From positions 3,488,001 to 3,552,000 of the forward strand of contig OZ242296.1 in NCBI GenBank assembly GCA_965207735.1: a stretch of DNA of 64,000 bases, written 5' to 3'. The position numbers were made by a program, and so were the translations under genes. Of this stretch, positions 1 through 19,154 are shown in pieces. This DNA is from Candidatus Versatilivorator sp. GTDB taxonomy: Bacteria; Acidobacteriota; Terriglobia; Versatilivoradales; Versatilivoraceae. Below the pieces are notes generated by a model. That model did no database searches. It worked only from the letters and a program-made list of their open reading frames with translations, and was not told where the DNA came from. The first letter of the stretch is position 1, and every line of letters starts with the position of its first letter.

Positions 1-195
1 AGTCTGCAATGCGCTTGATTGCCCTTCAGCCAGAATTTTTTGGGCCGTTACGTCGCCATCTGCAGCTATCCGCTTAGCTTCAGCTTCTCGCCGTGCTCTC
101 CAAGACGCCAACATTGGACCAGCAACGCTACCTATTCCGCTCGCTGCATAATCCAATAGTTTTTCTAGCGCAGGAACATTTACGTTTAAGTCCAC
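1..195 (-). CDS. 5' part of a putative DUF2806/TIGR03899-like protein (runs off the window)
   Basis: Not in the ORF track. A GTG at 195 after a GGGAG RBS-like motif opens 65 stop-free codons: VDLNVNVPALEKLLDYAASGIGSVAGPMLASWRARREAEAKRIAA. Family assignment is from recall. Confidence 0.55.
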   Translation of the reverse strand, partial: MDLNVNVPALEKLLDYAASGIGSVAGPMLASWRARREAEAKRIAADGDVTAQKILAEGQSSALQT

Positions 196-255
196 AGCCT
201 TTGCTCCCGACCGGTTGGGTCCAAACTACCCATGGCTCTGTTATCTGACCATCAA

Positions 256-336
256 CTAGGATTGTGCTCTGTTTCCCCCAACCGGTAGCTTCCCAGAGAA
301 TACCTTCGGCAGCAGCGAGTCACTGAGGGCGGCGAG
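256..336 (-). pseudogene. Relic of a type I R-M specificity subunit (hsdS) 3' end
   Basis: Translates to LAALSDSLLPKVFSGKLPVGGNRAQS*, aligning with the HsdS C-terminus at 1235-1321 (LTAVRDALLPKLISGKLRDG...), 12/20 identical residues. Confidence 0.75.
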
Positions 337-337
337 A

Positions 338-1183
338 CTACCACTCAATTGGAGTCAACCTTGGACTCAGTTTGTCGGCAACTTTGGGCACCCAACTGTC
401 ATTGTGGCGATAAAACACGAAGCGCTCCGCCATAAAGGCCACACGACGATCAATTTCCTTGACTAGCGGCGGCCTCGCCTGAACGAAAAAAAGCCCCTCA
501 CGCGGCCCCTGCCAACAGCCGTATAATGCAACGTGAGATGACAAAGGGAAACTGAACTCCCCAAAAGGCGGTTTCAACCCGTACCCCTCATCGAAGAACA
601 CCGGATTGTCACAGGTGAGAAAGTAATGTGAGTCGTCTGCTATGATAACTCTCCATGTCATGGAAAAGATGCAGTGAATCATAACCGGCGAAATCCATTG
701 ACGACGGATAAGAGCGTCTTTCATTGAAAGTCGCTTGCTGTCAAATTTCCCCTCCCATTCCTCGATCTCGTGTAGTAGTTCTTCCTGCGATAAATTGAAT
801 CTCGATGCCTCTAACCCAAGATTTCCTTTGATCTCTGATAACAGTTCGCTTTTCACTTGAGGGGCTTTCTCAATCATTTTTCGCCTATTACGCGGCCCCC
901 TCTTGATCATTGATTCCAAATAAACTGCGACTGCTCGTCTACCTTCCACTCCAACCTCCTGGCCATTTCGCAGTCGATCGAGCGGATCTTGAGCGGGACC
1001 TTCGATCTGGTCGCTCAACGCACGCTCATCTTCCTCACTATAAAATCCGCTCGATTGCGCCACATTCTTAATCGGAAGTCGTTTAAACTCCTTCGAACAT
1101 TTGTCATACATCCAGCTTTTGTCCGGGTCCTCCGGTGTTGCAAAGTGGCGTAGGTAGTGTTGTGGAAGGTAGTGCTGTCCCAT
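338..1183 (-). CDS. DUF4238 domain protein
   Basis: N-terminal QHYLPQHYLRHF and internal FLTCDNPV motifs typical of DUF4238; visibly lower GC than the core genes. Confidence 0.75.
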   Translation of the reverse strand: MGQHYLPQHYLRHFATPEDPDKSWMYDKCSKEFKRLPIKNVAQSSGFYSEEDERALSDQIEGPAQDPLDRLRNGQEVGVEGRRAVAVYLESMIKRGPRNRRKMIEKAPQVKSELLSEIKGNLGLEASRFNLSQEELLHEIEEWEGKFDSKRLSMKDALIRRQWISPVMIHCIFSMTWRVIIADDSHYFLTCDNPVFFDEGYGLKPPFGEFSFPLSSHVALYGCWQGPREGLFFVQARPPLVKEIDRRVAFMAERFVFYRHNDSWVPKVADKLSPRLTPIEW

Positions 1184-1234
1184 TGTTCCTGAAGTTTCAG
1201 CTTAATCGACGTGAACGATGCCGAGGTCCGAGGT

Positions 1235-2584
1235 TCAACTTGTCTTGTGCGCCGCTTGCTTTCCGTCCCGTAACTTGCCCGAGATGAGTTTAGGCAGAAG
1301 CGCGTCTCGGACAGCTGTGAGGAAACGGGATTCTTGAATTGAAGAAACGATGCGATCAATCGGTGGCTGAATCGACCTAGTGAAGACCGCCGCCAATTTC
1401 TGACGGGGCAATGGAACTTGATAACGGGACATGTCGGTCCAGTTCGTGCGCGGCATTCTTGTCCCAGTGGATGTGGCGTCTGTGTAATGCACAAACTCGG
1501 AGCTCGACGCATGACCGAGCACGAAACCAAACCATTCATCGGACACTGGAGAGATGACCACAATGTCGGTTGAACATACACCTCCAATAGGAGCGACACC
1601 TACCTTGTGGAAGTACGGCCGGAGTTTGCCGAAGAGAATGTCGCGTTGCTCGAACCTGAACTTACTGCTAGCCAAACCACCCGCCGTACCCCATTGCGAA
1701 AGTGCGATACAACGCTTGGGCATGTGCTCAAGCGCGATGTAGGGGGTGCCGGCGTCAATTTGTTCTGGACTCACTCCACGCCGACGTTGGGCTGCACACT
1801 CCCCCAACGGCTTCACCTCCCATCCCTCCGGTATCGGACCGAGTTCAGAGTCCACAAAGCTGTCGGGGAATAGGGCCGCGATGTCGGGTTCCATGCTGTT
1901 GAGGTAAGCGCGGGCCCGTTCGACACTCCAATCATTCCCCTCTTTATGGGGAGTCGCAGCGTGATGTTTGAGGGTGGCTTTGGCGTGGACGGGGTCGAAG
2001 TCGACGAACCAGGATTTGAACAGCGCCCGAGCCATCTCCTCCAGCGTCTGGTTCATCCGCCGGTTCAACTCGATCTTGTCGTCGAGCGAACCGAGGATGT
2101 GGGCGATGGCGCGCTGTTCCGGGAGAGAAGGCACTGGCAGACAGAAACCTGGAATGTCAGCGCATTTCAAACTGTCGAAGACCGCTCCAACGTTGATATA
2201 CATGGCAACTTGCTCCCACCATCGAGGACCACGCACAAGCCAACGCAAGAAAGGCTTGAAGATCTTTGTCCCATCGGATCGGAGCAAGACCAGATTCTGA
2301 CCCAGCGCGAATTGGAGACTCTTCGGCACAAATCCGGTCTCTCCGGGATTGCACCGTCGAGAGAGAACGATATCGAATGGTTCGGGATGAGCTTTCCGCG
2401 TCCATTCATCAAAGTGTTTACGTGTGATCCGGCGAACTCCATTCAGATTGATTCGGCCGTCCTTGACCTGAGGGATAGCGACGTAGGGATAACCGCGTTC
2501 TGAAGCCGGTGGAGTACGGTGCTCGCAGTCGATCAGTGAAACACCCGCCTCACGCAGCGACATAATCAGCCACTCACTCGCCAT
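1235..2584 (-). CDS. hsdS: Type I restriction-modification specificity subunit S
   Basis: Two TRDs, central conserved region LPEQRAIAHILGSLDDKIELNRRMNQTLEEMARALFKSWF, C-terminal RDALLPKLISG. Confidence 0.95.
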   Translation of the reverse strand: MASEWLIMSLREAGVSLIDCEHRTPPASERGYPYVAIPQVKDGRINLNGVRRITRKHFDEWTRKAHPEPFDIVLSRRCNPGETGFVPKSLQFALGQNLVLLRSDGTKIFKPFLRWLVRGPRWWEQVAMYINVGAVFDSLKCADIPGFCLPVPSLPEQRAIAHILGSLDDKIELNRRMNQTLEEMARALFKSWFVDFDPVHAKATLKHHAATPHKEGNDWSVERARAYLNSMEPDIAALFPDSFVDSELGPIPEGWEVKPLGECAAQRRRGVSPEQIDAGTPYIALEHMPKRCIALSQWGTAGGLASSKFRFEQRDILFGKLRPYFHKVGVAPIGGVCSTDIVVISPVSDEWFGFVLGHASSSEFVHYTDATSTGTRMPRTNWTDMSRYQVPLPRQKLAAVFTRSIQPPIDRIVSSIQESRFLTAVRDALLPKLISGKLRDGKQAAHKTS

Positions 2585-2587
2585 TCC

Positions 2588-2908
2588 TTACTCCTCTCTC
2601 CCCACCAACACCACATGATCGCGTTCGATCTCGTGGTGAAAGCTCTGCGGCAGCCGCGCCCAGTCCCGCGCTTCCACCAGGAAAGGAATGGTGGAGTCAC
2701 GTAGCGCCTCCTCGAAGTCGGCCAACCGTGAGAGATCAATCTTGGCGAGGCCGGAGCCGCGTAACACCAGATCCAGGTCGCTGCCTTCGTGGCTTCGGCC
2801 ACTGACGCGGCTGCCATAGGCCCACACCTCCACACCGGGCAGATGCCGGCGCAGCAGCGCCTCGATCTGCTGCCGGTGCCTCGGCGACAGATGGAACCGC
2901 TCAGTCAT
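2588..2908 (-). CDS. Minimal nucleotidyltransferase (MNT/MntA-like antitoxin)
   Basis: YGSRVSGRSHEGSDLDL matches the GSx10DxD motif; 106 aa. Confidence 0.88.
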   Translation of the reverse strand: MTERFHLSPRHRQQIEALLRRHLPGVEVWAYGSRVSGRSHEGSDLDLVLRGSGLAKIDLSRLADFEEALRDSTIPFLVEARDWARLPQSFHHEIERDHVVLVGREE

Positions 2909-3323
2909 CTTCCTCCTCTTCGATCACCTCGGCCAATTCCCTTGCATCGGCGAGAAAGGCTGGCAAGATCTCCAGGGTGGATTCGGCAAAGTCTTTGCCG
3001 TAATTGTGGGCGGTATCGTTGCGATTGTCGCGGTACTTCAGCCAGCGTTCGCAGGTGTCCAGGTCGATCAGGTCATGCTTGGCCGCGTGCCGGAACAGAT
3101 CCTTGAATACAAGGCGGTCCGCTTGGCGGTTGCTGGCGAAATAGGCGCCGAGACGCTTCTTCAGCAACTTGCCGCTCTGCTCCAGCACAATTTCAAACTC
3201 CTTGACGCAGGCCGCGCGATAGATGTCGTAGGTAATGTCATCCGGGTCGCTGCGCTTGAGTTCATTCAAGGCGCGCTCCAACGTGTTGAGGCAGCGTCTT
3301 AGGAATTCCGTGTTGATGTTCAT
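2901..3323 (-). CDS. HEPN-domain nucleotidyltransferase substrate-binding protein (HI0074/HepT-like toxin)
   Basis: [17 protein letters not shown] and an intact Rx4H motif (RNDTAH); overlaps the MNT gene. Confidence 0.88.
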
Positions 3324-4948
3324 GATCCCTCACCATCCCCAAAGCCCAACTGCGTCAGGTTTTTCTCAATGGCCGCATCCAGTCTAACTGCCTCGGCCTG
3401 CTGCTTGCGCCACTGGGCGGCGAGACGCTTCATCTTTTCCTCGAACGGCTCGCCGTCGTCTTCCTGCGCTTCCGCCCCGACGTAGCGGCCGGGGGTGAGC
3501 ACATGGCCGTGCTTGCGAACCTCCTCCAGGGTGACGCTCTTGCAGAAGCCCGGAACGTCCTTGTACTCGTCAGCGCCACCCTCATCCCGTTCCTCCTCCT
3601 TCGAGGGAGCGGAAACACGGTTGCGCCAAGCCTGGTAGGTTTCGGCGATGCGGGCAATGTCCTCCTGGGTCAACTCGCGGTGGGTGCGGTCCACCATGCG
3701 GCCGAGCTTCCTTGCATCGATGAACAGGATCTCACCGCTCCGCTCACGTCGGCGCGCCAGAAACCAGAGGCAGGCGGGAATCTGGGTGGAGTAGAAGAGT
3801 TGGCCCGGCAAAGCGATCATGCAGTCCACCAGGTTGGCTTCGATCAGGGACCGGCGGATGTTCCCCTCGCCCGACTGGCTTGACGACATGGAGCCGTTGG
3901 CGAGCACGAAGCCGGCCGCGCCGGCGGGCGACAGGTGGTGGACCATGTGCTGCACCCAGGCGAAGTTGGCGTTGCCCTTGGGTGGGACGCCGTATTGCCA
4001 GCGCTGGTCCTGGGTGAGCCGCTGGCCGCCCCAGTCGGAGACGTTGAAGGGTGGATTGGCCAGGATGAAGTCGGCCTTGAGGTCGGGATGGCGGTCGTTG
4101 TGGAAGCTGTCGCCGTGGGCGATCTGGCCCTCGATGCCCCGAATGGCCAGGTTCATCTTGGCCAGTCGCCAGGTGGTGTAATTGGATTCCTGGCCGTATA
4201 TGGAGATGTCGCCCCTGGCCTGTCCGCCGTTGCCGTTGCCGCTGGCGTGAGCCCGTATGAATTCCACCGACTGGACGAACATGCCGGAGGAACCGCAACA
4301 GGGATCGTAAACGCGACCCCGCCAGGGCTCCAGCATCTCCACCAGCAGCTTGACTACGCAGCGGGGGGTGTAGAACTCGCCGCCCTTCTTGCCCTCGGCG
4401 CTGGCGAACTGGGAGAGAAAGTACTCGTAGACACGGCCCAGCACGTCCTTGGATTGGGCTTCCTTGTCTCCCACCCGGATGTTGCTGACGAGGTCGATGA
4501 GTTGGCCCAGTCGCTGCTTGTCGAGGGAGGGGCGGGCGTAGTCCTTAGGCAGCACGTCCTTGAGCACCCGGTTGTCGTGCTCGATGCCGGCCATGGCGCC
4601 GTCGACGAGCTGGCCGATGGTAGACTGGCGGGCTTGGGACTTCAGATTCGCCCAGCGTGCCTCCGGCGGCACCCAAAAGATATTCTCGGCGATGTACTCG
4701 TCACGGTCCTCGGCGGCCTCGCTGCCCCATTCGGCCACAACCGCCGCATGGCGCTCTTCGAAGGCGTCGGAGATGTACTTCAGAAAGACGAGGCCCAAGA
4801 CGACGTGCTTGTACTCGGCGGCGTCCATGTTGCCGCGCAAGGCGTCCGCCATCTTCCAAAGCTGGGCCTCGTAGCCCGTGATGGCGCCGTCGCCCCCGGG
4901 CTTTGCGTCTGTCTTGGAGGCTGTTTTCCCCGATTGTGCGCTTGCCAT
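3320..4948 (-). CDS. hsdM: Type I restriction-modification methyltransferase subunit M
   Basis: [11 protein letters not shown]-terminus, [16 protein letters not shown] (motif I), ANPPFN (motif IV). Confidence 0.97.
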
Positions 4949-5152
4949 GGTTTCCTTTTCTCTCAGGCAATCGATGGGTCGTTAACTGCTTCCGGCTCTG
5001 GCCTCCGGAACTGCCGGGCAACTACACCGGGTGGTCCTTCCTTGGAGTTCTCTTCACTGTAATCGTGAGCCGTACCGATGCAGTCGTCGGCGCAATCCAA
5101 CCCTTCCTGCAGCGGCACGGCAAACCGCTGCACAGTTGACGTCGCCCCGGTG

Positions 5153-5443
5153 CTACCTGCCCGCGGCCGCCGTGGGCAGTTCACGCACGGCAGCGCCGGC
5201 CCGTTGCTGAGCGACGGCGAGGTCGAATTGTGTCTGGAGGTTCAGCCAGAATTGGGGGTCTATTCCGAACCAGTGCCCGAACCGTAACGCGGTATCGCCG
5301 GTTACGGAACGCTTGCCGGCGATGATTTGACTTACCCGGTTGGGTGGCACATCAATCTGACGGGCAAATGCCGTAGGGCTCACGCCAAACTCGGCCAGCT
5401 CGTCTCTCAGAATCTCGCCAGGGTGAACGACGCGCTTCAACAT
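5153..5443 (-). CDS. higA: HigA family antitoxin
   Basis: HPGEILRDEL, HTH region, FWLNLQ motif. Confidence 0.93.
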   Translation of the reverse strand: MLKRVVHPGEILRDELAEFGVSPTAFARQIDVPPNRVSQIIAGKRSVTGDTALRFGHWFGIDPQFWLNLQTQFDLAVAQQRAGAAVRELPTAAAGR

Positions 5444-5463
5444 GCCAACGTCCCTCCTCTCGA

Positions 5464-5745
5464 CTAATGGTAGTCCACAATCTCAACGCCGGTTGGCCCC
5501 GGACCATCGGGCCAAGCAAAGCAGATGCGCCATTGCCGATTGATGCGGATGGAATACTGTCCTTCTCTCTCGCCACTGAGGGCTTCCAGGCGATTGCTTG
5601 GCAGTGCCCTCAGGGTGTACAGCGAGGGCGCTGCGTTCAGGATGGCCAGCCGCTTGGATGCTTGCAGTTCGAACCCCTGGAATGCGGCTACGAACTCGCC
5701 GGCGGCGAAGCGCTCCGTGCGCTTGTCCCTATAGCTGAGTATCAT
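5464..5745 (-). CDS. higB: HigB (RelE/ParE family) toxin
   Basis: PSNRLEALSGEREGQYSIRINRQWRICF...EIVDYH; toxin-first order. Confidence 0.93.
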   Translation of the reverse strand: MILSYRDKRTERFAAGEFVAAFQGFELQASKRLAILNAAPSLYTLRALPSNRLEALSGEREGQYSIRINRQWRICFAWPDGPGPTGVEIVDYH

Positions 5746-5753
5746 GCGGGAGT

Positions 5754-5791
5754 AGCATATGGACTATGACGCTTGACGTCAAGAGTCATAG
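5754..5791 (-). promoter_or_regulatory. higBA sigma70 promoter with palindromic operator
   Basis: Minus strand TTGACG (5782-5777), 17-bp spacer, TATGCT (5759-5754), ATG 8 nt later. A 28-bp palindrome ctatgacgcttgacgtcaagagtcatag (5764-5791, one mismatched pair) is centred on the -35. Confidence 0.75.
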
Positions 5792-6184
5792 GGGTTGAAC
5801 ACCGGAACGCCCGTCGGCTCGAAGTGCTTGACGTTGCGGATCACCACGGTCAGGCCGGGCTCCAGCGCCGTGGCGGCAATGATCAGGTCCGCCGCGCCCA
5901 AGGTCGCCGGACAGACGCCCCCACCGGCGTGCAGTGGGGACGTCGACGTCGAGAACCCGGTCGCCGTACCAGGCGAGCACTCTGTCAAGCCAGATGGACA
6001 ACTCCCGGGCGAACGATGGGTCACGGCGCTGCTGTTGGGCGATTCCATGCTCTATTTCGCCAATGGTCACTGCGCTCAGGTACAGGTCTGCCGTCCGCTG
6101 GGCCTGCAACCACCGGACCATCTCCGGATGGCGGTCCCGTCGTCGCAGCGCCGACAGCACGTCGGTGTCAATCAGGAACATCAC
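5779..6184 (-). pseudogene. vapC: VapC PIN-domain toxin, frameshifted near 5895
   Basis: One frame gives FLIDTDVLS...RRWGRLSGDLG; the conserved C-terminus ADLIIAATALEPGLTVVIRNVKHFEPTGVPVFNPY is in another frame (ORF 5779..6048). Confidence 0.85.
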
Positions 6185-6435
6185 AGGTCCAGCGGGCGGG
6201 TCGGTAATGGCAGTCTGTCGAAATCCTGGTCATCCCGCGGGATTTCCAGCAGCAACCCGGCCAGCGTCGGCGCATTGGCTTTCTCCAAACGGCACAGGCG
6301 CTCGTACTCTTCTGCCGCCAGCACGACGACGGCAGGCTTGCCACGGCGGGTCACCCGCTGTGGTGCGCCGCCGAGGGCGGCGTCGACCACGGCGCTGAAG
6401 CGGTTCTTGGCGTCCTGCAAGGGCCAGTCGGTCAT
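6181..6435 (-). CDS. Phd/YefM family antitoxin (VapB)
   Basis: WPLQDAKNRFSAVVDAALGGAPQRVTRRGKPAVVV; overlaps the vapC start. Confidence 0.9.
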   Translation of the reverse strand: MTDWPLQDAKNRFSAVVDAALGGAPQRVTRRGKPAVVVLAAEEYERLCRLEKANAPTLAGLLLEIPRDDQDFDRLPLPTRPLDL

Positions 6436-6934: not shown

Positions 6935-8944
6935 TTGGCGAAGAAACCGAATAGAGCGAAACGGAAACCCCGTGCGGGTACCTCGCCCTCCGGGCCACGA
7001 TTCTCCTTCGGTGGCTCGCGCCTGTGGGTTCCGCTTTTGCTGTTTGTGGTGGTGGTCGGCGTCTACCTGCCGTCGGTGGACCATGGGTTTCTCTATGACG
7101 ACTACGAGGTGATTCTCTCCAACGCTCCTTTGCGCTCGGTTCAGGATCTTGGGCGCATTCTGACGGAGAGGCACTTCCTCAGCCTGCCCTATTACCGTCC
7201 GGTGGTACGCTCCTCGCTGCTGCTGCAAAGAAGCCTCCACGGAGACGAGCCCGGCCCCTTTCACCTCTTCAACGCCTGCGTGGCCGGACTGATCGCCATC
7301 ATTGCCTACGCCCTGCTGAGGCTGCCGGTCTTCGGCTTGCGGCCTCGCTGGGCATGGCTGACCGCCGCCGTCTTTGCCCTGCACCCGGTGGCTTCCTCCT
7401 GCGTCTACCCCATCGCCTCGGGACGCGAGACCCTGCTGCCGGCCCTGTTCGTCCTGCTGGCCCTCTACTGCTTCCTCAGGCCCGGGCCATGGTGGCGGGT
7501 GGGCGCCTCCGTCTCGTTCGCTCTGGCCCTGTTCGGCAAGGAGCAGGCGGTGGTCACCCTGGCGGTCTTCGTGCTGGCCGACGCTCTGGGCCTGACCTCG
7601 GCGGCGCCCGGCCGCAGCCTCCGCCGCTGGGTGGTCCGCTACTGGCCGGAGGCCGCTATCGGCGCCCTCTACTTCTCCATTCGCCACTTCCTGTTTGCAG
7701 GCGGGGAGTATCGCCTGGGAGACCTGGGGCAGTTCGCTCTTTCCTACCTCTACGCGCTGCAGGTCGTGACCGTCCCCTTCTGGGAGATGGTCTACGAGCC
7801 TCCGGCCCGGGTCTGGTTCAGCCCCTGGCGCCTGGCCGTCGCGCTGGCCATCGCCGGATGGGCTGTGTTGTGGATCCGGCGATCCTGGCCCGCGTTTCGG
7901 GCCCTGACCTGGTTCTGGCTGGGCTGGTTCGTTCTGACCCTGCTGCCGACGGCCAATCTGCTGGACCAGGAGGCCCCATTTGCCGAGCGCTACGTGTTTC
8001 TGGCCGCGCTGGGCCCGCTCTTTCTGCTGGCCCGGGTTCTCTCCAACCGCGAGAAGGAGGGAAGGCCCAGGCTCTGGACGGGCCTGGCCGTGGCGCTGCT
8101 GCTGGTGGTGGCCGCCCAGACCGTCGCCCGGGGCGCCTATTATCGAGATTATGAGGCCTTTTGCCGGCAGTGGGTCAAGACCGACCCCCAGTCGCTCAAC
8201 GCCCACAACAGCCTGGCGGTGGTTCTGACCATGGACGGCCGGCTGCAAGAAGCCGGCGTCCACTATGAAGAGGCCCTCAAAATCGCGCCGGACAGCGCTC
8301 AGGCTCGCAGCAACCTGGCCAACCTGCGCCTGCAGCAGGGGAGGCTTCAGGAAGCCCATGGCCTCCTGCAGGAAGCGTTGCGCCTGGACCCCGACTCCTT
8401 CGCCACCCACAACGCCCTGGGCGCCATGCTGCTGGGACAGGGCAGAATCGAGCAGGCCATTCCCCACTTCGCGCGGGCCATCAGCCTGAACTCGGAGAAC
8501 CAGCAGGGGCACGCCAACCTGGCCAACGCGCTGGCGCACCAGGGCAACACCCGGCAAGCCGTCCACCACTACCGCGAGGCCCTTCGCATCCATCCGGGCC
8601 TGGTCCACGTGGCCAACCGCCTGGCCTGGATCCTGGCCACCCATCCCGACCCGGCGCTACGGTCCGGCGCCGAGGCGGTCGATCTGGCCGAGAGCTTCTG
8701 CCGGCCGCCCAACGACGCCAACCCCATGTTCCTGGACACCCTGGCGGCAGCTTACGCCGAGACAGGACGGTTTCCCCAAGCACTGGAGACGGCCACGCGG
8801 GCCGCATCCCTGGCTTCTTCCATGGGTCAGCCTGAGCTGGCGGACCAGATCCGGCAGAGATTGGCTGCTTACCGGGAGCGCCGCCCGGTTCGCTACTCCG
8901 AGATTCAGTGGAGGACCTCCGGCACTTCCTTGAGGCACGATTAA
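6935..8944 (+). CDS. TMTC-like membrane glycosyltransferase with C-terminal TPR repeats
   Basis: Multi-TM N-terminal half with YDD, YYRP, FALHP and AERYVFL motifs, followed by several TPRs. Confidence 0.75.
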   Translation: MAKKPNRAKRKPRAGTSPSGPRFSFGGSRLWVPLLLFVVVVGVYLPSVDHGFLYDDYEVILSNAPLRSVQDLGRILTERHFLSLPYYRPVVRSSLLLQRSLHGDEPGPFHLFNACVAGLIAIIAYALLRLPVFGLRPRWAWLTAAVFALHPVASSCVYPIASGRETLLPALFVLLALYCFLRPGPWWRVGASVSFALALFGKEQAVVTLAVFVLADALGLTSAAPGRSLRRWVVRYWPEAAIGALYFSIRHFLFAGGEYRLGDLGQFALSYLYALQVVTVPFWEMVYEPPARVWFSPWRLAVALAIAGWAVLWIRRSWPAFRALTWFWLGWFVLTLLPTANLLDQEAPFAERYVFLAALGPLFLLARVLSNREKEGRPRLWTGLAVALLLVVAAQTVARGAYYRDYEAFCRQWVKTDPQSLNAHNSLAVVLTMDGRLQEAGVHYEEALKIAPDSAQARSNLANLRLQQGRLQEAHGLLQEALRLDPDSFATHNALGAMLLGQGRIEQAIPHFARAISLNSENQQGHANLANALAHQGNTRQAVHHYREALRIHPGLVHVANRLAWILATHPDPALRSGAEAVDLAESFCRPPNDANPMFLDTLAAAYAETGRFPQALETATRAASLASSMGQPELADQIRQRLAAYRERRPVRYSEIQWRTSGTSLRHD

Positions 8945-9040: not shown

Positions 9041-9721
9041 ATGAAACATTCCGTTGCGTTCCTTCTCGATGCCGACAACACCTTGCTGGACAACGACCGC
9101 ATCCTGGCGGATCTCGTGGGCCACATCGAGCAGACGGTAGGCCACCAGGGGAAGCAGCGCTATTGGGCCATCTTCGAGGATTTGCGGGACGAGCTGGGAT
9201 ACCACGACTACCTGGGAGCCTTGCAGGGCTATCGCAATCGATATCCGCACGAGCCGCGCCTGATGTCGATTGCCTCCTTCATGCTCAACTATCCCTTCGC
9301 CGATCGTGTCTATCCGCAGTCGCTGGAGGTGGTGCGCCATCTCCAGCAATGGGGCGCGGTGGCGATCCTCACCGACGGCGACATGGTGTTCCAGCCTCGC
9401 AAGATGGAGCAGTCCGGCTTGGCCGAGGCCGCCGGCGGCAACGTGCTGATCTACGTGCACAAGGAGGAGGAGCTGGAGGACGTGGAAAGGCGCTATCCCG
9501 CCGACCACTACGTGTTGGTAGACGACAAGCTGCGGATCCTGACCGCCGCCAAGAAAGTGTGGGGAAGTCGCGTCACCACCGTCTTTCCCCGGCAGGGGCA
9601 CTATGCCCTGGACCCCGAGATCCTGGCTCAATTCCCCCCGGCCGACCTCAGCCTGGAAGGGGTCGGCGACCTGCTGACCTGCGAGTTGCCGGCCCTGATC
9701 CAGGCCGGACAGTCTTCCTAG
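9041..9721 (+). CDS. HAD superfamily hydrolase
   Basis: FLLDADNTLLD motif I, TDGD, VDDK motif IV. Confidence 0.88.
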   Translation: MKHSVAFLLDADNTLLDNDRILADLVGHIEQTVGHQGKQRYWAIFEDLRDELGYHDYLGALQGYRNRYPHEPRLMSIASFMLNYPFADRVYPQSLEVVRHLQQWGAVAILTDGDMVFQPRKMEQSGLAEAAGGNVLIYVHKEEELEDVERRYPADHYVLVDDKLRILTAAKKVWGSRVTTVFPRQGHYALDPEILAQFPPADLSLEGVGDLLTCELPALIQAGQSS

Positions 9722-9909
9722 CCCACAGCGCCTCAAAACCTCCAGGCACTTATATCCATACCTTCAACAGGATTCCGCAGGCTCCGAGCGAATCATCGAG
9801 CTGGGATCGTGGGGAAAATGGAACGGGGCTTGCTGTTCTATACTTGTTGTGTTCCAGGTTCAGAGTTGTCACCCCTGATATCGCGAGTGACGACGCCCGG
9901 AGAGCGATC

Positions 9910-11178
9910 GTGCTGGACGAGCTGAGATGGACCTTGCGGTCGTTGGTCATCGACGCCCTGTTGATGCCGGAGTACCGGCGGAGTGGCGTGGCCTTCAACC
10001 CGCTGTCGGACAGGGCAATCCGCAATCCCTATCCCGCCTACGCCCGGCTGCGCGCCCGATCGCCGGTGCACCGCAGCCGGGTGCTGGACGGCTGGGTGTT
10101 CAGTCGCTACGCCGACGTCGAGGCCATCTTTCGAGATTACCGCCGGTTCTCCAACATGCCGACCAATCGAAGGGTGTCGAGGCGGGATGTCTACTTCATT
10201 CCGCCCCGGGCGGACTGGTCCCTGTTGTTCCTGGACCCGCCGGAGCATACGCGCCTGCGGGGACTGGTCAATCAGGCCTTCACCCCGCGGGCCGTCAACG
10301 CCCTCGAGCCCCATATCCGGCGGATCATGGTCGAACTGCTCGACGCCGTCGCTGACCCGTCCGGCTTCGACCTGATGGCGGCGGTGGCCGGTCCGTTGCC
10401 GGTGATCGTGATTGCCGAGATGCTGGGGTTGCCGCCGCAGGACCGCCTCCGATTCAAGTACTGGTCGAACCAGCGCGCGCGCATCCTCGAACCGCTCATC
10501 AGCCCGGATGAGCGAAAACGGGCCGCTGCCGCCGGCGAGGCGTTCGACGCCTACTTCATGCCCGTTATCAGAGCCCGGCGACTCCAACCGAAAGACGACA
10601 TCATCAGTGCCCTCGCAAAGGCGGAAGAGGAAGGGGATACCCTCAGCGAGCGAGAAATGCTGATCATGATGCGCATCCTGCTGGTCGCAGGCAACGAGAC
10701 CACCACCAACCTGATCGGCAACGGGATGCTGGCGCTGCTGCAGCATCCGGAGCAGTTGAAGCTCCTGCGGGAAGACGCCCGTCGGATACCGGGGGCAGTG
10801 GAAGAGTTGCTGCGCTACGACACACCGGTCCAGCTCGATATCCGCGCCGTGGTCGAGGATTGCGAGTTTCAGGGCTTTCGGATGCGCCGCGGCGATCCCG
10901 CCATCCTGGCCATCGGCGCGGCCAACCGCGACCCGGAGGTATTCGAAGACCCGGAGCGGCTGAACATCGAGCGTTCCAAGGGCAGCAACCTCTCCTTCGG
11001 CCGGGGCGTCCACCACTGCCTCGGTGCGCCCCTGGCGCGGTTGGAAGCCCGGGTCGCGCTGGAAGTGCTGCTGGAGCGCTTCAGCTCCATTCGGCTGCTG
11101 ACGGACCGTCCCGCCTTTCGCCGGGCCATCGTCCTGCGCGGGCTCGAGTCCCTCCCGGTCTCGGCCGTCCCTGCGTAG
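9910..11178 (+). CDS. Cytochrome P450
   Basis: DPPEHTRLR, AGNETT, EELLRY, FGRGVHHCLG. GTG start at 9910 after GGAGAG. Confidence 0.93.
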   Translation: MLDELRWTLRSLVIDALLMPEYRRSGVAFNPLSDRAIRNPYPAYARLRARSPVHRSRVLDGWVFSRYADVEAIFRDYRRFSNMPTNRRVSRRDVYFIPPRADWSLLFLDPPEHTRLRGLVNQAFTPRAVNALEPHIRRIMVELLDAVADPSGFDLMAAVAGPLPVIVIAEMLGLPPQDRLRFKYWSNQRARILEPLISPDERKRAAAAGEAFDAYFMPVIRARRLQPKDDIISALAKAEEEGDTLSEREMLIMMRILLVAGNETTTNLIGNGMLALLQHPEQLKLLREDARRIPGAVEELLRYDTPVQLDIRAVVEDCEFQGFRMRRGDPAILAIGAANRDPEVFEDPERLNIERSKGSNLSFGRGVHHCLGAPLARLEARVALEVLLERFSSIRLLTDRPAFRRAIVLRGLESLPVSAVPA

Positions 11179-16286: not shown

Positions 16287-19154
16287 ATGTTGGAAGGACG
16301 CTATCTCGACCTGTTCCAGGACCTTTCCGGAATCATTCCCGGTGAGCGGCTCATCCGGGACGACCTGCGCACCCTGGCCTACGGGACGGACGCCAGCTTC
16401 TACCGCCTGATCCCCAAGCTGGTGGTCCGGGTCGACACCGAAGCCGAGGTGGGGGAAGTCCTGAGGCAGTGCCGCGCCCACCGGCTGCCACTCACCTTTC
16501 GCGCGGGAGGAACCAGCCTCTCGGGGCAGTCCCTCAGCGACTCGGTGCTGATGCAGTTGGGCACGGGGTGGCGGGGGATCCGAATCGAGGACGAGGGCAG
16601 GCTTATCACCTTGCAGCCCGGCGTGGTCGGCGCCCACGCCAACGCCCGCCTGGCTCCCTACCGGCGCAAGATCGGGCCCGACCCGGCTTCCATCAACGCC
16701 GCCATGGTGGGTGGCATCGCCGCCAACAACGCCAGCGGCATGTGTTGCGGCACCTCCCAGAACAGCTACCGCACCCTGGAGAGCATGAGGGTCATCCTTG
16801 CCGACGGCGCCGTCCTGGACACTCGCAGCCATGCCAGCAAGGATCGATTCCGCCAGGCCCGACCGAACCTGGTGGAACGCATCGGTCGACTGGCGGAGCG
16901 GACTCGGCAGAACGGGGAACTGGCCGGCCGGATTCGCCGCAAGTTCAAGATGAAGAACACCACCGGCTACAGCCTGAACGCCCTGATCGATTTCGAAGAT
17001 CCCATCGACGTGATCCAGCACCTGATGATCGGGTCCGAAGGCACCTTGGGCTTCATCTCCGAAATCACCTACCGGACCGTGCCCGACCATCCCTACAAGG
17101 CCACCGCCCTGATCCTCTTCCCGGATATCAGGACCGCCTGTGAAGCCACCACCCTGTTAAGGAACTGTCCCGTCTCGGCGGTCGAGATCATGGACCGGGC
17201 CGGACTGCGCTCGGTGGAAGACAAGCCCGGCCTGCCCCTGGACCTGAAGAATCTGGACCCGTCGGTGGCAGCCCTGCTGGTCGAGACCCGGGGGGAAACA
17301 CCCGAAGACCTGGACCGGCACTTGGGAGCTACCACCCGAAGCCTGGCCGATCTGCCTACGGTGGAGCCGGTCGCCTTCACCCGGGACCCCGCCGAGCAGC
17401 TCCGCCTCTGGAACATCCGCAAGGGTCTTTTCCCCTCCATAGGGGCTATCCGGGAAATCGGGACCACCGTCATCATCGAAGACGTGGCCTTCCCCATCGA
17501 CCGTCTGGCCGAAGCCACCCTGCAGCTCCAGCAACTCTTCCGCAAGCACCACTACTCGGAAGCCATCATCTTCGGGCACGCCCTGGAGGGCAATCTCCAT
17601 TTCGTCTTCACCCAGGATTTCAACCGCCCCGAGGAAGTTCGCCGCTATCGGGACTTCATCGACGACCTCACCGAAATGGTGGTTCGCAGCTACGACGGCT
17701 CGCTCAAGGCGGAGCACGGCACCGGCCGCAATATGGCCCCCTTCGTGGAGTTGGAGTGGGGGGCCGAAGCCTACGGGCTGATGCGGAAGATCAAGGCCGT
17801 CTTCGATCCCGAAAACCTTCTCAACCCGGGGGTGATCCTCAACAGCGACCCCCGGATCCACCTCAAGAACCTCAAGCCCCTGCCCAAGGCCCACTCGGTG
17901 GTCGACAAGTGCACCGAATGCGGTTTCTGCGAGGTCAACTGCCCCTCCCGGGACCTGACCCTTACCCCTCGCCAACGGATCGCGGTTTGGCGTGAGATCT
18001 CCCGGCTCCGATCCGGCGGCGGCAACCCCGCTCGATTGGTCGAGCTGACCGGTCGCTACGCCTACCAGGGCAACGCCACCTGCGCTACCGACGGACTGTG
18101 CGCTATCGCCTGCCCGGTCAACATCGACACGGGCAAGCTCATCAAGGACCTGCGTCGCCTTGAGATTCCCGCATGGCAAGACCGGACCGCCACCTTGCTG
18201 GCCGACCACTTCGGACTGGTTACGGCCTCGCTGCGGATGCTGTTGACCGCCACCCACCAGTTCCATCGGCTGTTGGGCCCGGAAGGCATGCGGCAAGTCA
18301 CGAATTGGGCTCGGAAGCTTTCCGGGAACCGGCTGCCGCAATGGAATCCCTACCTGCCCGGGGCCGCCGAAGTCTTGACCAAATCGGGTGACGAAGGCCG
18401 GTCGCCCTTGAAGGCGGTCTACTTCCCAAGCTGTCTCAGTCGGACGCTGGGCGTGGCCGGCGACAGTGGGGGCCAGCCCTCTCAGAACCGCAAGTTGGAG
18501 TTGCTGATGCGCAAGGCGGGCGTGGAGCCGGTCTATCCGGAAAACCTGGACAGCCTCTGCTGCGGGATGCCCTTTGCCAGCAAGGGATTCGAGCGGCAGG
18601 GAGCCCGCAAGCAGGAGGAGTTGCAGCGGGCTTTGAACCTGACTTCCCGCGACGGCCACTATCCCGTTCTGGTGGACACCAGCCCCTGTCTCTTTCGCCT
18701 GAAGGAATCGGCTCACTTCGACCCGGAGTTTTCCATCTACGAGCCGGCGGAGTTTATTCTGAAGGTACTGCGGCCGGGACTCACCTTCAGCAAGCGCGCC
18801 GGCCCGGTGGCCCTGCACAGCCCCTGCAGCTCCCGCAAGATGGGGCTGGACAGCTCCTTGCGACAGGTCGCCGAACTCTGCTCCGAGGAGGTCATCGTCC
18901 CCGATAGCGTGGGCTGCTGCGGCTTCGCCGGAGACCGGGGCTTCAGCCATCCGGAGCTGACCGCATCAGCCCTCGGCTCCCTGAAGGCCTCCCTGCCGCC
19001 CAGTTGCCCGGTGGGCTACTCCACCAGCAAGACCTGCGAGATCGGGCTGTCGCTGCACGCCCGCATCCCCTATCAGTCGATTGCCTATCTGGTGGATGAG
19101 TGCACGGAAGGGCGGGTCCGGCAGGGTGGGGGAGAGGACTCCGGGGACGGGTAA
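16287..19154 (+). CDS. FAD- and Fe-S-containing D-lactate dehydrogenase (Dld-II type)
   Basis: FAD-binding FRAGGTSLSGQ, KAEHGTGRN, CTECGFCEVNCP ferredoxin motif, C-terminal CCG domains. Confidence 0.9.
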   Translation: MLEGRYLDLFQDLSGIIPGERLIRDDLRTLAYGTDASFYRLIPKLVVRVDTEAEVGEVLRQCRAHRLPLTFRAGGTSLSGQSLSDSVLMQLGTGWRGIRIEDEGRLITLQPGVVGAHANARLAPYRRKIGPDPASINAAMVGGIAANNASGMCCGTSQNSYRTLESMRVILADGAVLDTRSHASKDRFRQARPNLVERIGRLAERTRQNGELAGRIRRKFKMKNTTGYSLNALIDFEDPIDVIQHLMIGSEGTLGFISEITYRTVPDHPYKATALILFPDIRTACEATTLLRNCPVSAVEIMDRAGLRSVEDKPGLPLDLKNLDPSVAALLVETRGETPEDLDRHLGATTRSLADLPTVEPVAFTRDPAEQLRLWNIRKGLFPSIGAIREIGTTVIIEDVAFPIDRLAEATLQLQQLFRKHHYSEAIIFGHALEGNLHFVFTQDFNRPEEVRRYRDFIDDLTEMVVRSYDGSLKAEHGTGRNMAPFVELEWGAEAYGLMRKIKAVFDPENLLNPGVILNSDPRIHLKNLKPLPKAHSVVDKCTECGFCEVNCPSRDLTLTPRQRIAVWREISRLRSGGGNPARLVELTGRYAYQGNATCATDGLCAIACPVNIDTGKLIKDLRRLEIPAWQDRTATLLADHFGLVTASLRMLLTATHQFHRLLGPEGMRQVTNWARKLSGNRLPQWNPYLPGAAEVLTKSGDEGRSPLKAVYFPSCLSRTLGVAGDSGGQPSQNRKLELLMRKAGVEPVYPENLDSLCCGMPFASKGFERQGARKQEELQRALNLTSRDGHYPVLVDTSPCLFRLKESAHFDPEFSIYEPAEFILKVLRPGLTFSKRAGPVALHSPCSSRKMGLDSSLRQVAELCSEEVIVPDSVGCCGFAGDRGFSHPELTASALGSLKASLPPSCPVGYSTSKTCEIGLSLHARIPYQSIAYLVDECTEGRVRQGGGEDSGDG

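Follow-up and report, generated by a model that had tools for sequence, protein, structure and literature searches.

The window, a stretch of 64,000 nucleotides from Candidatus Versatilivorator sp. (contig OZ242296.1, positions 3,488,001 to 3,552,000), begins within a type I restriction-modification (R-M) operon that lies on the minus strand and extends in part to the left of the window. In this operon, a segment of 81 nucleotides (336-256, minus strand), located one base past the stop codon of a DUF4238 gene, is a true remnant of an hsdS 3' end. We favor the explanation, with a probability of roughly 60%, that this segment is a non-functional relic left when a module comprising a conserved hsdS tail block, its extension and the DUF4238 gene joined the locus where the hsdS body meets its tail. 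An earlier note, made from the letters of this DNA alone, had described the segment and proposed that each exchange at the hsdS tail brings in a new hsdS end plus a passenger gene and pushes the old tail downstream, giving an integron-like array of defence genes.

The relic reads LAALSDSLLPKVFSGKLPVGGNRAQS, and the functional hsdS gene ends in LTAVRDALLPKLISGKLRDGKQAAHKTS at 1321-1235 (minus strand); the two are identical at 12 of the 20 residues compared. A profile hidden Markov model built from 107 distinct HsdS tails, with the window's own HsdS excluded, was searched against the six-frame translation of the 5.26-Mb genome of the window (G000), a search space of 138,570 segments and 9.8 million residues. 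The relic scores 24.0 bits (E = 2e-4, genome-wide) over profile positions 20-41 of 42. Only the real hsdS tail scores higher (70.5 bits), and the next segment below the relic in the whole genome reaches 11.7 bits. Likewise, a tblastn search with the last 45 HsdS residues returned the relic as the top non-self match in the genome (E = 0.02). Its profile score was attained by none of 5000 residue shuffles (maximum 8.6 bits) and by none of 5000 DNA shuffles translated in three frames (maximum 9.9 bits). The coordinates and reading given in the earlier note are correct, and the segment does not behave like shuffled sequence against an HsdS profile, one of the results that the note had named as its refutation.

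The relic retains the conserved C-terminal helix motif of HsdS, and its homology to real tails begins at about position 337, at the DUF4238 stop. Upstream of this point, the sequence codes for DUF4238 in a different frame and contains stop codons in the hsdS frame. The relic comprises only ~22-26 codons, and two target-recognition domains (TRDs) in an open frame are absent from it. A relic is present at the same position in the related genome G006 and in a decayed second locus of genome G008 (G008b).

The gene order of the G000 operon, 5' to 3', is hsdM, HepT-like/MNT, hsdS, DUF4238, relic, DUF2806, an insertion sequence (IS), an open reading frame (ORF) of 67 amino acids, and hsdR. The DNA left of the window was analyzed as part of a 16-kb G000 locus (L001). 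The features within the window are as follows.

3320..4948, minus strand: hsdM, 542 amino acids (Pfam PF02384, E = 5e-108; PF12161).
2588..3323, minus strand: MNT (2588-2908) and HepT-like (2901-3323) genes between hsdM and hsdS (Pfam PF18765/PF01909 and PF08780).
1235..2584, minus strand: intact hsdS, 449 amino acids (Pfam PF01420), with full-length relatives of 54-86% identity.
1235..1333, minus strand: functional hsdS tail, consisting of the 66-nucleotide block at 1333-1268 (ESRFLTAVRDALLPKLISGKLR) and a cargo-linked extension at 1267-1235.
1184..1234, minus strand: spacer between hsdS and DUF4238, assigned by alignment to the DUF4238 module and kept in G008b.
338..1183, minus strand: DUF4238 gene, 281 amino acids (Pfam PF14022, E = 1.8e-25), the putative passenger of the newer unit.
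256..345, minus strand: hsdS 3'-end relic, with the profile match at 345-280 and, at 279-256, a decayed post-motif part up to a stop.
196..255, minus strand: decayed spacer from the relic to the DUF2806 start, with GGGAG ahead of the GTG start codon in its sequence.
1..195, minus strand: 5' part of the DUF2806 gene (PF10987, E = 4.2e-34), the putative older cargo unit, 347 amino acids with 848 bases left of the window.

The orthologous operon was compared in 11 other genomes of the genus (hsdR 82-97% amino acid identity) and in G008b. As the earlier note had anticipated for related strains, the cargo between hsdS and hsdR varies among the 12 genomes. DUF4238 and DUF2806 are both present in G000 and G006, and only DUF2806 is present in G009. 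A KAP NTPase gene (PADLOC PDC-S20) occupies this interval in G013 and G002, and in G005 an unknown gene of 326 amino acids (ORF326) is followed by KAP. SIR2 and HerA are found in G007 and G004, and unknown genes in G008 and G001; in G011 the hsdM-hsdS part has been swapped for IS elements, and in G012 the operon is mostly deleted. The DUF4238 protein is 87% identical in G006 and is encoded by a broken copy at the second G008 locus. The DUF2806 protein is 86% identical in G006 and 70% identical in G009. The cargo embedded in the same two slots of the relatives includes the PADLOC candidates HEC-01, PDC-S20 and PDC-M24B as well as the SIR2 and HerA pair.

The arrangement in G009 reveals what stood at the position of the relic. 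This genome has a single hsdS, whose tail (72.5 bits) has its stop 5 nucleotides before the DUF2806 start. The relics of G000 and G006 align with this tail from TCTCGCCGCC onward, and the junction at the DUF4238 stop reads GTAG/TCTCGCC against GTAC/TCTCGCC (the slash marks the junction). Because a real tail occupies the place of the relic when DUF4238 is missing, the relic is likely to be the old hsdS tail, displaced on addition of a module of tail block plus DUF4238, as the earlier note had argued. The DUF4238-relic junction is common to G000, G006 and G008b, and it is therefore counted as one event.

Some of these loci are themselves damaged. G008b (L014, ~9750-10710) is a decayed type I fragment that is separate from the intact operon of that genome and adjoins a dinB-like polymerase gene. 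It holds a frameshifted hsdM end, an hsdS tail scoring 55 bits, a DUF4238 gene that has lost ~240 nucleotides internally, and a weak relic (12.7 bits). The hsdS gene of G009 (L013) is broken by DDE_3 and DDE_Tnp_1 IS elements, and that of G005 (L047) by a DDE_Tnp_1/DUF772 element; the operons of both genomes are probably inactive.

The conserved 66-nucleotide block encodes ESRxLAALRDxLLPKLxSGE. When G000 and G013 are aligned, the hsdS bodies share 72-95% nucleotide identity per 60-column window, and identity drops from the start of the block (window positions ~1324-1264) to 65%, 35% and 20%, with G013 running into KAP. The DUF4238 module is found behind three different pre-block sequence types (G000, G006, G008b) and the KAP module behind two (G013, G002). 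Conversely, one pre-block type (G008b, G009, G005) lies ahead of DUF4238, DUF2806 or ORF326. The post-motif extension tracks the cargo and not the hsdS body, for example RIKDIxPLEAVSLLAR with KAP, LRxxKQ with DUF4238 and MRV(K/R)D with SIR2. Since the same cargo occurs behind different bodies, and the same body before different cargo, crossovers within or at the block have reshuffled the two. These findings establish the block as the point of reassortment of hsdS bodies and downstream cargo, and uphold the proposal in the earlier note that recombination takes place at the hsdS tail.

A similar arrangement is present in G005, where the hsdS tail is followed by ORF326, a relic (19.7 bits, E = 0.004) and the KAP NTPase gene. 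This relic is homologous to the G013 and G002 tails from GAATCC onward, the codons for the ES of ESR with which the block opens, and ORF326 terminates within the block. Judged by alignment, the G005 scar is a second, independent case of a tail, passenger, relic and older cargo in succession. Both passenger-carrying scars start within ~10 nucleotides of the 5' edge of the block. ORF326 was also considered as a hidden HsdS and rejected (hhalign probability 0.2%, no Pfam family above cut-off).

The same scar pattern occurs at another junction of the operon. In five genomes, extra copies of the last 26-40 hsdM codons lie downstream of the intact hsdM, behind inserted cargo, at the following positions.

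L013 (G009), 16593-16703: hsdM tail copy.
L047 (G005), 9568-9678: hsdM tail copy.
L048 (G008), 9186-9290: hsdM tail copy.
L050 (G004), 9224-9301: hsdM tail copy.
L052 (G001), 10461-10562: hsdM tail copy.

The cargo ahead of these copies is HicA/HicB in G009 and G005, and AAA_21 plus DUF4276 (PADLOC HEC-01) in G004. In the latter genome, the hsdM tail copy adjoins HepT in precisely the way that the true hsdM end adjoins it in G000.

Six metagenomic HsdS relatives (P0004, P0005, P0102, P0105, P0106 and P0109) are 82-87% identical over ~46% of the query and were called as proteins of 611-747 amino acids that also carry PF04480 (DUF559) and PF18741. These are possible hsdS-cargo fusions, or products of gene-calling read-through.

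We hypothesize that the relic arose in a short series of steps. Homologous recombination within the block or upstream of it would have brought in a new tail together with DUF4238, and one illegitimate join, at a GTA microhomology, would have placed the beginning of the resident block directly behind the DUF4238 stop. The old tail would thereby have been retained ahead of DUF2806 and, no longer translated, would then have decayed. The whole unit of block, DUF4238 and relic may later have spread to other hsdS bodies via crossovers in the upstream block.

Several points count against this explanation. Only two independent passenger-carrying scars are known, and the DUF4238 scar, present in three loci, represents a single junction. 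The mechanism is read from end products, with no intermediate stage seen. No donor with DUF4238 beside hsdS and without a relic was found; a scan of genome contigs gave no relative of the DUF4238 protein, and three distant relatives (23-33% identity) from a scan of metagenome contigs have no tail nearby. The order of events is unprovable, in that DUF2806 and its tail could instead have joined behind DUF4238. The location of both junctions at the block start fits a homology-driven cassette route equally as well as selection for short scars. Finally, the profile is tailored to one hsdS subfamily, and older or more diverged scars would escape it.

The relic could instead reflect a plain illegitimate insertion or the decay of a second hsdS, in that foreign DNA with DUF4238 would have landed within the hsdS 3' end, or taken the place of a tandem second hsdS body, with no special part for the block. 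We consider this unlikely. Under plain insertion, the position of the junction would be set by chance and by selection for short, harmless scars, and the 3-nucleotide GTA microhomology at the G000 junction is consistent with such an event. However, both of the independent junctions coincide with the start of the block, and the block serves as a crossover point for cargo exchange. In favor of a second hsdS are the common occurrence of tandem hsdS genes, with published reports of duplicated hsdS, and one distant locus found in a tail survey. This survey covered 80 hsdS loci of the subfamily from many phyla (931 kb), two of them from the window's genus, and 79 of the 80 carry a tail match. Outside the genus, a second same-strand tail was found at 1 of 78 loci (L075, 27.1 bits); it lies 212 nucleotides downstream, contains an internal stop, has no gene between it and the first tail, and may extend upstream of ESR. 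Against a decayed second hsdS stands G009, which has one hsdS directly ahead of DUF2806. The L075 tails (7712-8093) come from a metagenome-assembled genome titled Caldilineaceae, in which the hsdS is seemingly outside any hsdM/hsdR operon.

In another alternative, the units would be integrase-free cassettes, in which circles of tail block plus cargo are excised between blocks, re-enter by a single crossover and stack with the newest first. The near-coincidence of both passenger scars with the 5' edge of the block accords with this route, as does the left breakpoint of G000 and G013, which is in the same phase, so that exactly one unit appears inserted. The older units are also first units elsewhere (DUF2806 in G009, KAP in G013 and G002), and the scars at hsdM tails suggest that the locus is generally prone to such events. 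Yet more than one hsdS relic, and thus more than two units, was found at none of the 13 loci examined, and the only second tail outside the genus encloses no gene. The two tail copies of G000 are 59% identical in DNA and share no exact 9-nucleotide seed of a direct repeat; they therefore cannot now drive excision. None of the 15 contig joints listed, of 87 in all, skips the DUF4238 module; contigs cannot show rare variants. Stretches of 110 nucleotides at both tails fold, on both strands, no better than shuffles toward an attC-like structure (z +0.67 to +2.83). The first cargo-block junction would, moreover, still require an illegitimate event. On balance we doubt that cassettes of this kind account for the locus.

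More extensive stacking was sought in several directions. The check proposed in the earlier note, a scan for more tail relics towards hsdR, gave only two matches of at least 8 bits in L001, with none between DUF2806 and hsdR, and no further relic towards hsdR was found in either G000 or G006. No hsdS tail lies near 32 other DUF4238 loci, one of which (L038) has hsdM on the opposite strand. Among 401 genomes of the phylum, an hsdS tail accompanies only the window's own of 30 DUF4238 loci, and none lies within 1.5 kb of the four other DUF2806 loci. All ORFs from hsdM to hsdR, a DDE transposase among them, were named, and they include no site-specific integrase and no tyrosine recombinase. Cargo varies among the 12 genomes of the genus, and the units per locus number at most two. 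Of the model in the earlier note, the displaced tail and recombination at the tail block are supported, whereas repeated stacking into an array lacks support. With no integrase, no attC-like fold and a single second tail beyond the genus, the integron analogy is weak, and the phenomenon is, on present evidence, confined to one Acidobacteriota genus and rare elsewhere. The broader idea that hsdS and hsdM 3' ends are integrase-free docking sites, at which RecA-type recombination stacks units of tail plus defence gene newest-first, is for now quite improbable. If true, one could read from the decaying tails which defences a lineage gained earlier and which later.

The relic might also have been retained for a function, either as a peptide of 30 amino acids from an in-frame TTG at 348, as the earlier note had speculated, or as a promoter or ribosome-binding region for DUF2806. 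Its position immediately upstream of DUF2806 would suit the latter role, and in G009 a GGAGG lies in the 5 nucleotides between the hsdS stop and the DUF2806 start, indicating that the old tail region once held translation signals. However, the relics of G000 and G006 share only 66.7% nucleotide identity over 81 columns, compared with 89.5% for flanking DUF4238 and 91.2% for flanking DUF2806 sequence, and the spacer between relic and DUF2806 shares 60.8% with 14 gap columns. The relic thus changes ~3-fold faster than the neighboring genes, with no pattern by codon position (12/19, 14/19 and 12/19 identical) and so no sign of purifying selection on its coding sequence between G000 and G006. Its frame ends after 22 codons in G006 and sooner in G008b, the second tail of L075 has an internal stop, and in the X13 strain (~90% identity) the relic region is swapped for 114 unalignable letters. 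No promoter-like site was detected in a scan of window positions 1-5200. This divergence without codon pattern, the shifting frame ends and the replacement in X13 make the peptide unlikely, and we judge any retained function very improbable; the relic decays neutrally and is not being kept. Chance resemblance, which might be entertained for a match of only ~22 residues, is scarcely credible given the gap from 24 to 11.7 bits in 9.8 million six-frame residues, the shuffles that never match this score, and the recurrence of the relic at the same position in G006 and G008b.

The remainder of the locus conforms to an operon with embedded accessory genes. The non-hsd genes between the hsd genes all lie on the same strand, the arrangement by which embedded defence genes are recognized. 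The G+C content is 49% for DUF4238 and 46-53% for DUF2806, compared with 61.7% for the window and 64-68% for hsdM and hsdR, so that the passengers are AT-richer than the host, as the earlier note had observed. The scan of window positions 1-5200 also gave three terminator-like sites, which is below the shuffle count.

Left of the window, an IS of 2.09 kb with a DDE transposase of 618 amino acids (L001 7061-9150, window -2939 to -850) separates hsdR from the cargo and lies just past the end of DUF2806. It has inverted ends of 16 nucleotides (L001 7061-7076 and 9135-9150), and its end is a multi-copy repeat within the genus. This element is missing at the site in contigs of runs X3, X13 and X4. 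The layout is stable in other samples; the X3 contig, which is from another sample, has the same gene order without the IS. Upstream of hsdM (window 5153-6435) are small toxin-antitoxin-like ORFs, namely an HTH antidote-like and RelE/HigB-like pair followed by a PIN-like and Phd-like pair, all named from their letters only. A PIN_3 gene lies beyond hsdR (L001 2788-3219).

No description of displaced hsd tails flanking embedded cargo was found in the open-access literature searched. The novelty is modest, since the observations join two known things, embedded type I defence genes and recombination in hsdS conserved regions. The entry route of embedded defence genes is undescribed in the same literature, and the block as a joint provides a testable route. 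Displaced gene tails are also a simple marker for acquisition order, and profiles built for each family could be used to look for it in other operons.

In integron arrays, and in islands located in tRNA-gene 3' ends, a new unit at the head replaces the target end, and the former end persists farther downstream, forming a direct repeat. The locus described here resembles these systems in its proposed entry at the head, its replaced end and the downstream displacement of the old end. In contrast, it lacks both an integrase and a folded attC or att core, comprises at most two units, and its repeats have diverged.

Reassortment of TRDs via recombination in hsdS conserved regions is established for type I systems. 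As in that process, the crossovers here fall in conserved, non-TRD parts of hsdS. The difference is that the distal conserved region swaps DNA downstream of hsdS and that, at least twice, a unit was added and not replaced, leaving a displaced tail. TRD reassortment is the subject of an Xylella preprint (10.1101/2022.09.01.506293). The partial hsdS copies described in print belong to inverting, phase-variable type I loci, which likewise hold extra partial hsdS sequence near the expressed gene, in the form of silent copies that are reported to be TRD-bearing, inverted and mostly accompanied by a recombinase (PMC7394358, PMC7672463). The relic has no TRD, is in direct orientation and is decaying; no inverted repeat links the two tails, and the locus has no recombinase of the kind found with an hsdS shufflon.

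Both cargo genes belong, by Pfam membership only, to families with defence members. A single-gene DUF4238 defence from a P2-like prophage hotspot is a tested anti-phage member (PMC9122126), and Belisama is an integron cassette defence with DUF2806 (10.1101/2024.07.02.601686). Each of the two cargo genes is predicted to work against phage in its own right. Neither protein matched any PADLOC 2.0 model.

A further comparison is with type I R-M operons that carry embedded defence genes, known from PrrC, TgvAB and the HEC and PDC candidates of Payne et al. In the portions of that work available (10.1101/2024.01.29.577857; PMC11411939), embedded genes are counted and their entry route is not addressed, and the words 'recombination' and 'hsdS' each occur zero times in the corresponding preprint text. 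The operon studied here is similar in that accessory, defence-type genes are interspersed with the hsd genes in the same orientation. It differs from those reports in that its displaced tails, together with the reassortment, implicate the conserved hsdS 3' block as the joint.

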